DNA from: Candidatus Cloacimonadota bacterium | Lineage (GTDB): Bacteria; Cloacimonadota; Cloacimonadia; Cloacimonadales; TCS61 | NCBI GenBank assembly: GCA_021736135.1 | Contig: JAIPGO010000009.1 | Span: forward strand, 704-64,703 | Direction of reading: 5' to 3' | Length of the DNA: 64,000 nt | Shown: positions 23,425 to 41,804 of the stretch, piece by piece | Layout: each line of letters opens with the position of its first letter | How positions within the stretch are numbered: the first letter of the stretch is position 1 | Made by a program: the position numbers and the translations under genes | The notes under the pieces: generated by a model | Told to the model about the DNA's origin: nothing | Database searches by the model: none | The model's input: the letters and a program-made list of their open reading frames with translations, nothing else

Positions 23425-23776
23425 TATCCTTTTGTTTTGCACTTTTCACAATTGCGATTAACATTCGTATTATAACTTTCATATCGCCTTCAATTTCTAA
23501 AAACTGCTTCTCAGTTAAAAAACCAGTCCTCTTCATTAATATTAGCCAATAATCAGTCTCATAAGCTTCTTTTAGCGCGATAGACATCTTATGGATAAAA
23601 TCCGCCTTGCTTTCTCCATGCTCTGCTTCTCTTACCATCGCCCCAATAGAAGTTCCGCTTCTCAATACCTGTTTCGATAAGACATACTCCTTCTTCTCGC
23701 TACATAAATATTGATACATCTTCACAATCCTGATTGCAAAATCCAGGCTTCTCTCTTCAATCTCATTCTTCTTCAT
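23408..23776 (-). CDS. Four-helix-bundle protein (23S rRNA IVP / bAvd-like family)
   Basis: FAIRIV..Y, KQVLRSGTSIGA..REA, ESKADFIHK.SIA.KE..ET.YWL; GGAGG before ATG 23776. Confidence 0.92.
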   Translation of the reverse strand: MKKNEIEERSLDFAIRIVKMYQYLCSEKKEYVLSKQVLRSGTSIGAMVREAEHGESKADFIHKMSIALKEAYETDYWLILMKRTGFLTEKQFLEIEGDMKVIIRMLIAIVKSAKQKDNADGS

Positions 23777-27952: not shown

Positions 27953-28246
27953 TAAAAGTTCGCGTTTGTTAGCGTTTGTTCGCGGCTAAAGATATTCTAA
28001 TCCTCTATCCGTGTAATTCGCCCAATCCGCGGTTTAATTTCTTCCTTTTTATTTCGGTTTATCAGAGTTAGTCACTTACCACTGAATACTCTGAACTCAC
28101 TGAAAATTAAAAGCAAAAAGATAAATCTCTTCTCTTCCTTCCGTGATTTCAGTGCTTTCCGTGGTTGAAAATCTTCTTTTGGGGGTTTCGTTTTATCCGA
28201 GTTAGGAATTTGCGAATAGCAGTAATCTCTACTGCACAAGATGGAT

Positions 28247-37057: not shown

Positions 37058-39229
37058 ATGGATGTAAAAAACCTGAAAGCCAGTCACAAGCTGCTGAAAG
37101 AACAATCTTACGAAGTTGTTGAGTTAGAGCGCGGTTATGCCGGAAAGACGCTTTATATCAATCTTGATGACAACACTATTTTGGAAAAACCTGTGACTGC
37201 TGAGATGAAAGAGAAATTCATTGGAGGCAAGGGATTTGGACTGCGCCTGTTATGGGATGGGACGCGTCCGGAAACAAAATGGGATGATAATGATAATGAG
37301 ATCATCATCGCCGGTGGACCAATTTGCGGGATCACGCAATATGCCGGAGCAGGTAAAAGCCTGGTAGTAAGCATCTCCCCCACTACGGATGTGGTAATTG
37401 ACAGCAATGTGGGCGGATATTTCGGACCTTACCTGAAATTCAGTGGTTTTGATGCCCTCGAAATCCAGGGAAAAGCAAAGAAAGATGTGATCATTGTTAT
37501 TGACGGAACCACGGGTACCGTGAGTATTAAAGAAGCAGGCGGAGAAGCAGCAGACAGCCATATTATGGCGGAGCAGTTGACTGAGATGTATGCCTCCAGC
37601 GATAAACCGATTGATAAAATGAAAGTTGCCGTTGTCAGTGCCGGTTCTGCCGCAGACCACAGTTATATTGGCATGCTTAATTTCAGTTTTTACGATCTGC
37701 AGCGCCAGGTTTGCCGGCTGAAACAGGCAGGACGTGGCGGCATCGGCAGCGTTTTCCGAAACAAAGGGATACGCGCCATCGTCTGCAAGAGTAACGGCGT
37801 GAAAGGTGATATGAACCATGTGGTCAATATGGAAGCCATTCAGGAGCGCGGTAAGAATTTCACCAAAGAAATGAATGACTTTGATGATGAACAGTGCCAG
37901 ATGCGGAAAGTGGGTACAGCCCACCTGATGGAGATCATGGATGCTTATGACCTGCTGCCCACGCATAATTTCCAGTATGGCAAGGCAAGAGATGTGCATA
38001 AGAATATTGACGATATCAATAGTCACGTATGGACGGATAAATTTACACCGCGCAGCAGTGACGGCTGCTGGCTGGGCTGCACGATGGCTTGCGCAAAAGT
38101 ATCGGAGAATTTTAAGGTACGCACGGGACCTTATAAGGGGAAAACGGTGCATGTGGACGGACCCGAATATGAGTCAGCAGCGGGACTTGGCTCTAATATG
38201 GGAAACTTTGATCCTGATGCTATATTGGAATTGAATTTTTACTGCGATACTTATGGAATTGACACTATTTCCTTCGGCACGATGACGGCGTTTGCCATGG
38301 AATGCTATGAAAAAGGGATCATAAATAAAGAAATAACCGGTGGACTAGAGCTTAAATTCGGCAATGCGGACGCAGCGCTGGAAGCCATGCATCAGATGGC
38401 ACGCGGTGAAGGTTTTGGTGTGATTTTGGGTCAAGGCACTAAAAGAATGACAAAGATATTCCATGAACAATATGGTGGCGACCTGAAATTCATGCAGGAT
38501 ATTGGTATGCAGAATAAAGGACTGGAATACAGCCAGTACGTATCCAAGGAATCACTCGCTCAGCAGGGCGGATATGCCATGACCAATAAAGGTCCGCAGC
38601 ATGATGAAGCATGGCTTATCTTTATGGATATGGTCAATAACCAGATACCTACATTTGAAGATAAAGCGGAAGCCCTCCACTATTTCCCCATGTTCAGAAC
38701 CTGGTTCGGACTGATGGGACTCTGCAAACTACCGTGGAACGATGTGGAACCGGCAGGAAATGCCAAAACTGCTGAACCGGCAAAAGTGCCGGAACACGTT
38801 GATAATTACGTTACCATCTATAATGCCGTCACGGGGAGTAACATTGATAAGGTAGAAATGGTGCGTCAGAGCGAACGGGTATATAATTTCCAGAGGATAT
38901 TCAATATCCGCCGCGGATATGGACTCAGAAAGAATGATGCCCAGCCATATCGCGCCTGCGGACCGGTAACTGAAGCTGAATACTTGAGCAGAAGTGCCCG
39001 ATATGATAAAGAACTGACCGAAAAAATAGGTCTTGATCCCGCGAAAATGAGCCTGAAGGAGAAAATGGCAGCAGTGCGCAAATACCGCGAAGACAGATAT
39101 GAACAGCTTCTGGATGCAGTATATTTACGCAGAGGCTGGAACAGTAACGGTGTACCGAAAATCGAGCACTTACAGAATATAGGAATGGTTCTGCCGGAAC
39201 TTATCGACGTAATAACTCCGCTGCAGTAA
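37058..39229 (+). CDS. aor: Aldehyde:ferredoxin oxidoreductase family (tungstopterin) enzyme
   Basis: FIGGKG, SNVGG.FG..LKFSG.D, AGRGG.G, GC..GC..AC, GPEYE, CD.YGIDTIS, Y..RGW. Confidence 0.93.
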   Translation: MDVKNLKASHKLLKEQSYEVVELERGYAGKTLYINLDDNTILEKPVTAEMKEKFIGGKGFGLRLLWDGTRPETKWDDNDNEIIIAGGPICGITQYAGAGKSLVVSISPTTDVVIDSNVGGYFGPYLKFSGFDALEIQGKAKKDVIIVIDGTTGTVSIKEAGGEAADSHIMAEQLTEMYASSDKPIDKMKVAVVSAGSAADHSYIGMLNFSFYDLQRQVCRLKQAGRGGIGSVFRNKGIRAIVCKSNGVKGDMNHVVNMEAIQERGKNFTKEMNDFDDEQCQMRKVGTAHLMEIMDAYDLLPTHNFQYGKARDVHKNIDDINSHVWTDKFTPRSSDGCWLGCTMACAKVSENFKVRTGPYKGKTVHVDGPEYESAAGLGSNMGNFDPDAILELNFYCDTYGIDTISFGTMTAFAMECYEKGIINKEITGGLELKFGNADAALEAMHQMARGEGFGVILGQGTKRMTKIFHEQYGGDLKFMQDIGMQNKGLEYSQYVSKESLAQQGGYAMTNKGPQHDEAWLIFMDMVNNQIPTFEDKAEALHYFPMFRTWFGLMGLCKLPWNDVEPAGNAKTAEPAKVPEHVDNYVTIYNAVTGSNIDKVEMVRQSERVYNFQRIFNIRRGYGLRKNDAQPYRACGPVTEAEYLSRSARYDKELTEKIGLDPAKMSLKEKMAAVRKYREDRYEQLLDAVYLRRGWNSNGVPKIEHLQNIGMVLPELIDVITPLQ

Positions 39230-39242
39230 GAGAATATTAATA

Positions 39243-39774
39243 AACCGTGGACATATCTGATTAAGTGGAAAAAAGAAGATGCTGAAGAGTTCAGGTTTTT
39301 TTATCCGTTTAATCTGTGTGATCCGCGGTTAAATTATAAGTGTAATAATAGCTTAACAAAGATTATGAACCGCGGATAAAACGGATTTAACGGATAGAAG
39401 AGGAAGATGATAATATATTATATTAGGTCACTTTCTTTTTTGTCTCTTATCCGTTTAATCTGCGTTATCCGCGGTTAGTATATTTAAGTGTAACAAAAGC
39501 TTAATAAAGAATTTGAACCGCGGATAAAACGGATTTAACGGATAGAAGAGGAAGATGAGAATATATTATATTAGGTCACTTTCTTTTTTGTCTCTTATCC
39601 GTTTAATCTGCGTTATCCGCGGTTAGTATATTTAAGTGTAACAAAAGCTTAATAAAGAATTTGAACCGCGGATAAAACGGATTTAACAGATAGAAGAGGA
39701 AGAAGTAAAAGAATTTAATATGCTAATACTTTTCGTTCTGTCTTTTATCCGTTAAATCTGTGTGATCCGCGGTT
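39243..39774. repeat. Left array: four palindromic units (first degenerate), 148-bp period
   Basis: Units at ~39243, 39367, 39515, 39663: GAACCGCGGATAAAACGGATTTAACGGATAGAAG...TTATCCGTTTAATCTGCGTTATCCGCGGTT. Confidence 0.95.
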
Positions 39775-39803
39775 GAAAAATATTCGTTTTCAAAGGAGTT
39801 TCT

Positions 39804-40190
39804 ATGGGGCAATTACTATTTGAGAAAGAGAGTTACAAGATCAGAGGTGCTGCTTTTCAGGTTTATAATACTATGGGATGTGGATTTTTAGAAGCTGTTT
39901 ATCAGGAATGCCTGGAGAGAGAACTTTTAATCAGAAATATTCCTTTTGCTGCAGGTGTAATATTGAACCTGGAATATGATGGTTATTTGCTTGAACAGAA
40001 ATATGTCTGCGATCTTATCTGTTATAATGAGATCATTGTTGAGATCAAGGCTGTAAAAAGTCTGGAAGATATACACCGTGCTCAAGTGATGAATTATTTG
40101 AAGGCAACCGGGTTAAAACTAGGATTATTGGTAAATTTCGGAAGTTACCCAAAAGTCACAATCGAACGTATAATCTGGGAAAAAAAGTAA
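39804..40190 (+). CDS. GxxExxY family PD-(D/E)XK nuclease-like protein
   Basis: GFLEAVY signature, CDL...VEIK, AQVMNYLKATG..LGLLVNFG; 128 aa; AAGGAG RBS. Confidence 0.95.
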   Translation: MGQLLFEKESYKIRGAAFQVYNTMGCGFLEAVYQECLERELLIRNIPFAAGVILNLEYDGYLLEQKYVCDLICYNEIIVEIKAVKSLEDIHRAQVMNYLKATGLKLGLLVNFGSYPKVTIERIIWEKK

Positions 40191-40203
40191 AAAAAAATTT
40201 TAT

Positions 40204-40751
40204 GAACCGCGGATAGAACGGATTGAACGGATAGAAGAGGAAGAAGATAAATATACTATTAGGATTATTTTCCGTATTGTTTTTTATCCGTTTAATCTGC
40301 GTTATCCGCGGTTTGTATATTTACTTGTAATTATAGCTTAATAAAGAATTTGAACCGCGGATAGAACGGATTGAACGGATAGAAGAGGAATATGAGAAAT
40401 ATACTACTCGTGATCACTTTCCGTATTGTCTTTTATCCGTTTAATCTGCGTTATCCGCGGTTTGTATATTTACTTGTAATTATAACTTAACAAAGAATTT
40501 GAACCGCGGATAGAACGGATAGAAGAGGAGAAAGATAAATATAATATCCGTGATTAATTTCTATATTGTCTTTTATCCGTTTAATCTGCGTTATCCGCGG
40601 TTTGTATATTTACTTGTAATTATAACTTAACAAAGAATTTGAACCGCGGATAGAACGGATTGAACGGATAGAAGAGGAATATGAGAAATATACTACTCGT
40701 GATCACTTTCCGTATTGTCTTTTATCCGTTTAATCTGCGTTATCCGCGGTT
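40204..40751. repeat. Right array: four palindromic units, 140-149-bp period
   Basis: Units at 40204, 40352, 40501, 40641: GAACCGCGGATAGAACGGATTGAACGGATAGAAG...TTATCCGTTTAATCTGCGTTATCCGCGGTT. Confidence 0.95.
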
Positions 40752-40778
40752 TTAAACTCTTTTATTTTTTCCTGGGGG

Positions 40779-41804
40779 TTAATATCCCAGTTTCAGGAAC
40801 GTGAATCCTATGATCAAACCGACTATCAGGTTTATCACTTTTACAAAAACAAATCCGCGTCTGCTTTCTGCCAGCATCGGTATCATGCCGTGTCCATCCT
40901 GGACTATGGAACTGGCAAGAAGAATACTGAAGGGGATAGTACCCTCGAAAAAAAGCGTTACAAAGATCAGGTGTGGACCGGATTCGGGAACTAAGCCGAC
41001 GAGAGCGGCAATCAGCAGTACAATATAGCTGTTATTGGAAATCCATGATTCCACGGCGAAGAAGTGCATTAGAATGTGAATAAACAGTAATGCTCCTAAA
41101 GTCCAGGCAAAAATGGTGGGCAGATGCACTTTAACAATGTGATCCCAGAGATGCTCGGTAAGGAAATGCTCAGGCACCGTAACTGCCACAAACATAAGGA
41201 AAAGTGTCACCAGCACCACAGTGACCTTCATCCAGAGCATAAGATCATCTGCGACAACACCGGAAGCATATCCGATAAGGATAAGTAATAAAACCATGAT
41301 CAGCAGCACTCTCTGCATGGATGGTTTTTTCATGTAAACCAGCAGATTACCCTTGGGCAGACACTGGCATTTCTCTTCTAGATGAAGGGGAAGTTTGCGG
41401 TGTGATTTATGAAGATCAAGATGGGGAAATATTTTATCAGTAGCAAAACCGGCAATGATGCCAATAACGAAAGTGAGGGCGATAATAATTAATGCCTGGC
41501 TGGGGATCATAGCCAGCATTACGAAGGTCTCATCACCGCTGGTGGCGATCATGGCAGCAACCACAGCCCCTATGGAAACGATACCATGCGAATACATGGC
41601 AACAATGGTAAATGCACCCAGACAACCTGGAAATGCGCCTAATCCGGCAGCAATGAGATATTGCATCAATGGTTTCTGTTTGAGAAAATGTAGCCATACA
41701 CCCCGTGTCTGCACATTAACATACTCGATCAGAAGCATCATAACAAATACGAAACCCGTGATCATCACGGCATGTTTGAGAACTTCCATTAGAAGATTTA
41801 TCAT
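40779..41804 (-). CDS. Putative metal (Mn) transporter, DUF2899-like
   Basis: PGCLGAF, IATSGDE, PESGPH, QDGHG motifs; His-rich loop; many TM segments. Confidence 0.75.
   Translation of the reverse strand: MINLLMEVLKHAVMITGFVFVMMLLIEYVNVQTRGVWLHFLKQKPLMQYLIAAGLGAFPGCLGAFTIVAMYSHGIVSIGAVVAAMIATSGDETFVMLAMIPSQALIIIALTFVIGIIAGFATDKIFPHLDLHKSHRKLPLHLEEKCQCLPKGNLLVYMKKPSMQRVLLIMVLLLILIGYASGVVADDLMLWMKVTVVLVTLFLMFVAVTVPEHFLTEHLWDHIVKVHLPTIFAWTLGALLFIHILMHFFAVESWISNNSYIVLLIAALVGLVPESGPHLIFVTLFFEGTIPFSILLASSIVQDGHGMIPMLAESRRGFVFVKVINLIVGLIIGFTFLKLGY

Follow-up and report, generated by a model that had tools for sequence, protein, structure and literature searches.

A 64,000-nucleotide stretch of DNA from Candidatus Cloacimonadota bacterium (contig JAIPGO010000009.1 of assembly GCA_021736135.1, positions 704 to 64,703; G000:C109:704-64703 in our numbering, where G000 is the genome under study), hereafter the window, carries a small gene of the GxxExxY family set between two arrays of hairpin-forming repeats. 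We interpret this locus, with a probability of roughly 0.6, as one copy of a family of small selfish mobile cassettes resembling the intervening sequences (IVSs) of 23S rRNA, accompanied by eight gene-less derivatives that resemble miniature inverted-repeat transposable elements (MITEs). The hairpins have the gene's own arms. Our analysis establishes the structure of the unit, the association of gene and arms, their joint horizontal spread, insertion polymorphism, the occurrence of gene-less derivatives and the conservation of the catalytic residues.

The GxxExxY open reading frame (ORF; 39804..40190, + strand) encodes 128 amino acids and matches the PF13366 and TIGR04256 profiles. Together with its hairpins it fills positions 39243-40751, between the convergent genes for an aldehyde:ferredoxin oxidoreductase (aor) and a metal exporter. 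Four hairpins of 88-111 bp lie on either side of the gene, eight in total as the locus is assembled, and all are on the + strand. An arm is made of three 9-nt units, AACCGCGGAT / nnnaCGGAT / nnnaCGGAT, and begins with AACCGCGG; the opposite arm is its complement and ends in ATCCGCGGTT. In left hairpin 1 (39243..39330; fold -15.5 kcal/mol, z -5.3) the 5' arm (AACCGTGGACATATCTGATTAAGTGGA) is degenerate and the 3' arm copy, with the ATCCGCGGTT ending, is intact, and left hairpin 2 (39368..39476; -28.1 kcal/mol, z -8.7), matched by the arm hidden Markov model (HMM), consists of the arm AACCGCGGATAAAACGGATTTAACGGATAG, a loop and the complementary arm. Left hairpins 3 (39516..39624; z -7.1) and 4 (39664..39774; z -7.3) were found as inverted repeats. 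On the right, the arm HMM identifies hairpin 1 (40205..40313; arm AACCGCGGATAGAACGGATTGAACGGATAG, z -6.5), hairpin 2 (40353..40462; -27.9 kcal/mol, z -7.5) and hairpin 3 (40502..40602; z -4.9), and hairpin 4 (40642..40751; z -7.3) was found as a direct repeat. One spacing of 140 nt arises because right hairpin 3, whose 5' arm has two 9-nt repeats, is short of one such repeat.

The eight 3' arm copies are in register (39299, 39445, 39593, 39743, 40282, 40431, 40571 and 40720), and Tandem Repeats Finder reports a period of 148 for 39301-39703 (94% matches) and of 149 for 40203-40752 (88% matches). A first-pass annotation of the window, made from its letters, had described eight palindromic units in the same orientation, mostly 148-149 bp apart, with left- and right-specific variants and a twin pair formed by right units 2 and 4. 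Both descriptions were borne out, the twin units being 97% identical over 201 nt. When folded with DNA parameters against 200 shuffles per unit, all eight units formed long stems as single-stranded DNA (z -4.9 to -8.7; 0/200 shuffles matching in each case). The arrays are packed tightly between the genes: the first hairpin begins 13 nt past the aor stop codon, the 3' arm of left hairpin 4 ends 29 nt upstream of the GxxExxY start codon, right hairpin 1 begins 14 nt past the GxxExxY stop codon, and right hairpin 4 ends 27 nt short of the stop-codon end of the convergent transporter gene. The GxxExxY gene occupies the position of a linker (39 nt in the other units), between the outer ends of two hairpins, and is enclosed by the inverted pair 39741-39790 / 40189-40238, which is 76% complementary. 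Public runs containing the stretch amount to three short-read DNA runs from one study, with no RNA run among them, and their contigs break inside both arrays, no piece spanning the whole; a single contig covers 39658-40232 (arm, gene and the beginning of the next arm), and repeat pieces have 4-5x the depth of the flanks. As a candidate identity for the hairpins we considered Rfam families: positions 39000-41000 gave 52 matches by E-value and none at a family gathering score, mostly to plant and animal microRNA-precursor models, as expected of generic hairpins, and no rRNA match.

The encoded protein is well conserved. It matches PF13366 (PDDEXK_3) over profile positions 2-117 of 117 (E 2.8e-41, 141 bits, cut-off 22) and TIGR04256 with similar strength (E 4.6e-41, 139.8 bits, cut-off 35). 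Eleven residues are invariant in 37/37 aligned relatives and all are present here (G25, G27, E30, Y33, D70, E80, K82, Q94, Y98, G107 and N111); among them are the eponymous motif G27-x-x-E30-x-x-Y33 and the PD-(D/E)XK catalytic residues D70 and E80-I-K82, confirming the earlier description of a lone 128-aa gene with an intact D...EIK signature. Q94xxxY98 resembles the RecB-family QxxxY motif. An AlphaFold2 model (predicted local distance difference test score 95.3) has an alpha-beta core, and its top match among solved structures is the Cas4 protein SSO0001 (E 1.5e-5, TM-score 0.60), followed by another Cas4 and lambda-type exonucleases, with Holliday-junction resolvases ranking lower. As modelled, the protein is a minimal PD-(D/E)XK nuclease of the RecB/Cas4-like branch, the members of which act on DNA ends and single strands. 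Sequence searches of the PDB gave no match at E <= 1, PHROGs gave none, and PADLOC gave one weak match (PDC-M36A, E 0.0012, 15.8 bits). Where a survey of PD-(D/E)XK nucleases lists PF13366, its function is entered as 'Unknown' (PMC3424549), and GxxExxY is named merely in passing in the relevant part of PMC8934634.

The arms are not confined to this locus. Across the G000 assembly (4.14 Mb in 148 contigs, 41% G+C, 98% complete) the 10-mers AACCGCGGAT and ATCCGCGGTT occur 39 and 62 times, respectively. An nhmmer profile built from 99 arms (E <= 1; the first ten positions are fixed by the seed and uninformative) finds 131 arms in 84 clusters, 65 of which are single arms. The largest cluster, with 15-16 arms, is the GxxExxY locus itself, the runners-up having 8 and 6; about 115 arms lie elsewhere, including one in the window at 28001..28042 (- strand; C109:28704-28745, 28 bits, with an exact 10-mer at C109:28728). 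Only one PF13366 gene faces these arms. Arm midpoints fall outside ORFs of at least 90 aa in 124/131 cases, and arms near the 3' ends of ORFs are found 0-50 nt past the stop codon, where at 22 of the 32 ends with an arm between -30 and +80 nt it is the 5'-type arm that follows the stop. Of the single arms, 55 were tested for a partner downstream; 19 of them have one and the other 36 do not, apparently being true solo arms. Per-position conservation across copies is 0.66-0.96 in the CGGAT cores and 0.3-0.6 in the spacers, a pattern such as would be expected of a recognition site. The exact CGGAT pattern, with 47 occurrences in G000, is absent from 30 relatives that belong to other genera of the same order; judged by this distribution, it is young or fast-evolving. 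A check for other ORF families enclosed by arm pairs in this genome yielded six candidates, all of them ordinary genes or non-coding stretches.

PF13366 genes are present in 19 of the 30 relatives, with up to 10 copies per genome, and occur there in clusters, as fragments and with in-frame stops; such turnover (1-10 copies, clusters, fragments, stops) is typical of selfish genes. In the flanks of 40 intact genes from these relatives, read by eye, nearly all showed the same arm build around a different core. The cores seen are CACGGAA, CACGAAA, CACAGAG, CGCAGAG, GCAAAGG, GCAGAT, CACCGAA, CGAACAA and CGGAT, and paralogues within one genome carry differing ones. Arms may be nested (arm-arm-arm-gene-arm-arm-arm, for example at locus L053) or form tandem arrays, as at L016, L014, L036 and in the window. 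One complete chromosome has about ten GxxExxY genes or fragments within 42 kb (G021:C1:786000-828000, loci L021-L023), including tandem near-identical copies, each with GCAGAT-type arms. At another locus (L011, G022:C391) a small ORF that, judged from its translation alone, is HEPN-like lies directly upstream of the cassette. Neighbouring genes are co-directional with GxxExxY in 80/102 cases upstream and 86/113 downstream, which is about the rate for any bacterial gene and hence uninformative.

We quantified the association in 558 kb of loci fetched around GxxExxY genes of these relatives and of many phyla, treating all ORFs of at least 90 aa alike so that the remaining ORFs served as controls. 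An enclosing ungapped inverted repeat with a score >=12 was found for 45/87 GxxExxY ORFs and for 10/400 others, several of the ten directly adjoining a GxxExxY gene. A 5-mer that is periodic upstream (lag 8-10) and whose reverse complement is periodic downstream was found for 25/87 against 1/400 (Fisher p 1.8e-19). Strict arms, defined by an exact 5-mer with at least three occurrences at lag 8-10, numbered 209 in the 558 kb compared with 6 in shuffles, and 122 of the 209 lie <=120 nt from a GxxExxY gene, a zone that makes up 5.3% of the bases. Where both flanks were available, 76/110 genes had at least one strict arm within this distance and 35/110 had arms on both sides. Gapped local alignment places 70/113 GxxExxY genes within inverted arms, and the layouts of these 70 are a purine-rich arm, the gene and a pyrimidine-rich arm in 43, the reverse in 4, and unclear or between complete hairpins in 23. 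The test for palindrome enrichment near GxxExxY genes, proposed in the first-pass annotation as a check of its own idea, is strongly positive; random DNA from 13 relatives, for comparison, has 52 periodic segments (at wider lags, 7-10) and a single inverted pair in 798 kb. No Rfam match at gathering threshold, and no rRNA, was found in 15 of the related loci.

Beyond the order, we scanned one-genome-per-species contigs with a 7-sequence alignment and two peptide patterns that represent only the window's own subclade. Of 604 candidate stretches, 599 encode GxxExxY relatives. The best 80 of the 604 (54-67% identity) come from many phyla, including Desulfobacterota, Planctomycetota, Verrucomicrobiota, Bacteroidota, Chloroflexota, Proteobacteria, Spirochaetota and Acidobacteriota, and cultured carriers include Nitrosomonas halophila Nm1, Sunxiuqinia dokdonensis DH1, Phaeodactylibacter xiamenensis KD52 and Desulfamplus magnetovallimortis. 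At nearly all of the 27 loci whose flanks were read by eye, CACG(G/A)AA-type arms border the gene directly: the 5' arm, (A)ACCACG(G/A)AA-nn-CACG(G/A)AA-nn-CACG(G/A)AA, abuts the start codon and its complement, ending ..CGTGGT(T), abuts the stop codon. Gene-less hairpins are often nearby. In a quick protein tree, built without support values, sister proteins from Geobacter, Methylobacter, Methylomicrobium, Gallionella and Nitrosomonadales records have near-identical arms (GTCCACGAAAAnCACGAAAGGCACGAAAA). Since such arms accompany sister proteins across classes, the sequences indicate that gene and arms move together between bacterial classes.

Insertion polymorphism is seen at the purCE|purD junction, which is visible in 16 genomes of the order (loci L121-L137). 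The junction is empty in seven, G000 included, and holds arm-gene-arm cassettes with three arm types in four. G007 has a gene-less hairpin there, whose CGAACAA arms are those of the cassette at this site in G013; three further genomes have composite or relic arms and one has another, unrelated inverted-repeat insert. The junction is an insertion hotspot.

The design of these cassettes is that of the S23p IVS elements. PF05635 (S23p, a four-helix-bundle family) is represented by four genes in G000, all with periodic flank repeats and at least one enclosed by an inverted pair, in its case of TTGATAAT repeats. One of the four lies in the window inside an ABC-transporter operon (23456-23773, corresponding to G000:C109:24159-24476, - strand; S23p or '23S rRNA IVS protein') and has GACGATG three times directly upstream of its start codon; the flank repeats of the other three are TTGATAAT, GATTAAG/GATTATG and GATGAAG. 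Among the relatives, 14/26 PF05635 genes are enclosed by inverted periodic arms. Each ORF family has its own arm-repeat period: of 177 spacings in GxxExxY arms, 137 are 9 nt and 23 are 10 nt, and of 62 spacings in PF05635 arms, 43 are 7 nt and 16 are 8 nt. According to the pertinent sections of a 2016 paper on Coxiella, the 23S rRNA IVS of that bacterium is a selfish element of 428 nt, with terminal inverted repeats that form a 28-bp stem and three tandem GACAGAT heptamers, variable in number, ahead of the S23p ORF; it is removed by RNase III, and its origin and mode of spread are described there as unclear (PMC4990558). The GxxExxY cassettes share with it an element size of about 430-500 nt, a stem of some 28-30 bp formed by terminal inverted repeats, short tandem repeats of variable number in the arms or leader (2-4 repeats of 9 nt for GxxExxY) and an ORF of about 120 aa in the loop, and S23p genes of this lineage outside rRNA carry the same kind of periodic inverted arms. 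The two differ in their ORFs, which encode a PD-(D/E)XK nuclease (PF13366) in one and S23p (PF05635) in the other, as well as in their period and in their location, GxxExxY cassettes lying between protein-coding genes whereas IVSs lie in helix 25 or 45 of 23S rRNA. They differ also in the multiplication of gene-less hairpins into arrays seen here, and excision by RNase III is a feature of IVSs that may, by analogy, extend to GxxExxY cassettes.

On this basis, we propose that the cassette is a unit of about 440-500 bp comprising a 5' arm, a short leader, an ORF of about 125 aa for a RecB/Cas4-like PD-(D/E)XK protein and a complementary 3' arm. The 5' arm consists of 2-4 purine-rich repeats with a 9-nt period, starting (A)ACC(A/G)CG, and the arms would be the terminal inverted repeats of the element. 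Loss of the ORF would leave a hairpin of 100-115 bp with MITE-like behaviour. This gene-less form, with its CGGAT core, has multiplied in the present genome to about 130 arms, mostly directly after host stop codons, and beside the sole copy of the gene it has grown into two tandem arrays with a 148-bp unit of hairpin plus linker. By analogy with the S23p IVS, read-through from a host gene would let the arms pair into a stem of some 30 bp open to cleavage by RNase III, and such cleavage might make insertion into operons tolerable. The least secure step is how the element spreads: the nuclease might cut the arms or extruded hairpins, with repair then copying the element into related hairpins or new sites in a homing-like manner. 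We hold this step only tentatively, together with its premise that the nuclease acts on its own arms. The premise is attractive in that the active site is conserved, conservation of the arms is restricted to their cores, the period is specific to the ORF family, and insertions are nested or adjacent. Against it count the S23p cassettes, which spread without a nuclease, the arms of a genome with no PF13366 match (G020) and the ratio of one gene to about 130 arms here.

Several points weigh against the interpretation as a selfish cassette family, or against parts of it. The window layout itself, with a 3' arm, the gene and a 5' arm and hence the gene between hairpins and not in a loop, is found in just 4 of the 70 enclosed genes. 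Mismatches within arm pairs carry no wobble signature (G.T/T.G 41, A.C/C.A 35, other 78, in 1294 columns), so that the mismatch spectrum lends no support to a stem selected at the RNA level. No nuclease of about 125 aa can join DNA unaided, a single gene faces about 130 arms in this genome, and the S23p cassettes have the same design without a nuclease, meaning that spread may not depend on the chemistry of the ORF. The roughly 800 periodic repeats of this genome, of many motif families, make it clear that periodic repeats per se are not unique to the element. A stricter autocorrelation detector gave a weak contrast, 18/87 against 25/400, with 15 of those 25 adjoining a GxxExxY gene; this detector misses most arms because the spacers vary. 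As the loci were taken around GxxExxY genes, there are few within-locus controls per genome. In random DNA from 13 relatives (798 kb) we found 52 periodic segments at the wider lags of 7-10 and one inverted pair, and periodic density was similar in genomes lacking the gene (22 segments in 398 kb) and genomes with it (30 in 400 kb). Moreover, the complete genome G020 (99%) has no PF13366 match and yet has 10 canonical ACGAAAnnnACGAAAnnnACGAAA arms. A correlation of genome-wide repeat counts with the presence of the gene, which the first-pass annotation had proposed as a check, is thus unsupported in this sample. The reversed control pattern is frequent in G020 (22), and therefore another repeat family is present there. 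Four of the ten ACGAAAnnnACGAAAnnnACGAAA arms are identical; sites include C1:187800, 2021815, 2999948 and 3266889. Finally, no target-site duplication and no base-exact element ends could be defined, the empty and filled purCE|purD junctions belonging to different genera too diverged to place the ends, nor did we see an excision or insertion event that distinguishes close strains.

These points bear on what else the locus might be. It is unlikely, in our estimate, that another enzyme acting in trans, host recombination or replication slippage moves the arms as a generic vehicle, with GxxExxY, like S23p, as cargo with a role in, for example, addiction, defence or nucleic-acid processing. Such a vehicle would account for the same architecture around an unrelated non-nuclease family (14/26 PF05635 genes in relatives and at least 1/4 in this genome), for the arms without a gene in G020, for the many single arms and arrays in G000 and for a window gene that lies outside the hairpins. 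However, GxxExxY and PF05635 arms differ in period (9 nt and 7-8 nt, respectively) and the arm motif tracks the protein clade across phyla, which is better fitted by arms matched to their own ORF, or by two separate lineages. Nor was a candidate for the trans-acting enzyme found beside the arms: each of the nine matches to Y1_Tnp (PF01797) in this genome is either on a contig other than those with arms or separated from the closest arm by 10 kb or more, and no match to the integron integrase profile TIGR02249 exceeds 82 bits against a cut-off of 265. The weak PADLOC match and the lack of any in PHROGs leave a known defence role unsupported. An integron-type origin, in which the hairpins would be attC-like sites, the array a cluster of attC sites lacking an integrase (CALIN) and GxxExxY one of the cassettes, is very improbable. 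The hairpin-gene-hairpin layout and the eight imperfect hairpins of the 100-115 bp class in a single orientation, arrayed and following a small ORF, do resemble such cassettes, and the outer ends ..AAC/GTT.. are loosely like the consensus of attC R boxes; but the arms, judged by reading, are three 9-nt repeats and not R/L box pairs, the whole ORF lies inside the inverted repeat in the commonest layout (43/70), and insertions are solitary and in housekeeping operons, such as at purCE|purD, and not in arrays beside attI. We regard it as scarcely credible that gene and repeats are chance neighbours, with the arrays being no more than the usual intergenic repeats or terminators in a genome rich in repeats, possibly inflated in assembly. 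The abundance of periodic repeats over the 55 in shuffles, the arms after many unrelated genes and the short-read contigs that break in both arrays, leaving unit number assembly-dependent, could be read in this way. However, the association recurs, with different arm sequences, in further genomes and phyla, one public-run contig covers arm, gene and arm, and the 4-5x repeat depth is as from several copies.

The first-pass annotation had likened the locus to the repetitive extragenic palindromes (REPs) and REP-associated tyrosine transposases (RAYTs), and a domesticated system of this kind, in which the host keeps a single-copy GxxExxY nuclease that makes, spreads or maintains hairpins that serve it, for example as stabilisers of RNA 3' ends, is in our view decidedly unlikely. 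The features that suggest it are a single PF13366 gene with 131 arms in 84 clusters, the largest at the gene; arms that are intergenic, close behind stop codons and most often led by the 5'-type arm; and cores that are kept while spacers are free. Against it, the genes of relatives are multi-copy (up to 10), clustered and often broken, each with its own arms; close homologues are scattered over phyla, contrary to what vertical descent of a host gene would give and suggestive of a gene phylogeny at odds with the host tree; G020 retains arms but no gene; and the exact CGGAT pattern is absent from all 30 relatives from other genera. In REP/RAYT systems and their REPIN forms, extragenic palindromes are likewise dispersed about a hundred-fold, a gene is flanked by cognate repeats, clusters are regularly spaced and repeats lie in the 3' regions of genes (PMC2817692, PMC3116915, PMC3337134). 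The differences are that RAYTs are HUH Y1 transposases whereas the present protein is of the PD-(D/E)XK type; that REPs are G+C-rich palindromes of 20-40 bp whereas the arms are periodic repeats of 27-33 nt without the GTAG or CGTC end tag (the tag is named in the title of PMC3733652); and that GxxExxY genes elsewhere are multi-copy, horizontally mobile and usually inside the inverted repeat. What stands of the analogy is one gene flanked by its own repeats and some 130 arms; outright membership of REP/BIME-RAYT (BIME, bacterial interspersed mosaic element) was rejected, given a PF13366 gene in place of an HUH enzyme, Y1_Tnp matches far from the arms and the usual arm-gene-arm layout.

The reading as a selfish cassette family with gene-less offspring has further parallels among mobile elements. 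As with MITEs, gene-less hairpins share their terminal arms with a gene-bearing cassette, even at the same site in sister genera (G007 and G013), they have no coding capacity and persist where no autonomous copy was found (G020), and they are intergenic and number about a hundred; unlike MITEs, they come with no transposase of a known family and no target-site duplication that we could find, and many copies are single arms, 36 of the 55 tested having no partner. Free-standing homing endonuclease genes, which include PD-(D/E)XK types, are likewise small selfish nuclease ORFs with patchy horizontal spread, decay and reoccupation of the same site. The GxxExxY cassettes differ from them in having inverted-repeat arms of their own and gene-less copies, with no intron or intein context and no recognised target site. 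A wider and rather speculative possibility is that a domain-wide, unnamed class of mini-elements has GxxExxY proteins as its dedicated endonucleases. Each protein would recognise the 9-nt-repeat arms of its own element, which would spread through the cutting of related hairpins or of sites close to stop codons, followed by repair copying, and would leave up to hundreds of MITE-like hairpins; S23p IVSs would be a sister class with a different ORF. If true, this would supply a first function for a large orphan family and would explain the origin of rRNA IVSs.

PF13366/TIGR04256 is a large family, in which two peptide patterns of one subclade alone retrieved 599 relatives. Recast as the ORF of a mobile mini-element, it gains a concrete candidate substrate in its own arms, whether in duplex, hairpin or cruciform form, and the design shared with S23p genes links its cassettes to the IVSs of 23S rRNA. 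For annotation, the element accounts for intergenic hairpin repeats that fragment assemblies and for small ORFs wedged in housekeeping operons. The IVS design itself was already known; what is new here are IVS-like hairpin-ORF cassettes with a nuclease ORF and MITE-like offspring. The mini-element looks previously undescribed, no description of the GxxExxY/PF13366 family with flanking repeats having been found in literature other than subscription journals and the curator comments of TIGR04256.

The neighbours of the locus are as the first-pass annotation had them, a pair of convergent aor and metal-transporter genes, in agreement with the ORF list and with profile matches. The aor gene (37058..39229, + strand) encodes 723 aa matching PF01314 (E 3.4e-104) and PF02730 (E 2.4e-44), and the convergent gene (40779..41804, - strand) encodes an ArsP_2-type metal exporter with ten transmembrane segments (PF11449, E 3.3e-39).

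Other repeats of this genome are also worth recording. Short periodic segments (a 5-mer at least three times at lag 7-10) number about 800 genome-wide, for example at C59:11394-13012, C64:12189-13818 and C66:30583-31200, with motif families including TCACT, CACGA, GTGAG, CCGAGTT and ATGTAAA; their density is 19 per 100 kb here and 0-23 in the sampled relatives, making the genome unusually rich. A repeat containing ..CCTAACCTGGACAAGCCAGAACCGAAAAAGAAGAATTTG.. is present in at least 12 copies, joined to a CGGAT arm and frequent at contig ends (C12:290-400, C25:35510-35620, C143:1-110 and C131:52000-52182); it is probably part of some longer repeat at which the assembly breaks. The motif GGGGAATGAACACG recurs beside arms (C148:3500-3600, C1:7040-7060, C41:20095 and C66:55520) and once follows a stretch resembling a structured RNA (..GGTCTAAAGACCATCCGCAAGG..). 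Seven weak-to-moderate Y1_Tnp matches lie in frames of 118-229 aa (C147:27730, C26:2248, C58:15459, C106:4779, C141:23473, C32:25255 and C25:7416). The match at C26:2248 is flanked by a palindrome of its own, GGAGTACATTAAGAATTCTTAATGTACTCC, and may represent a true REP/RAYT-type system that has no relation to the CGGAT arms.

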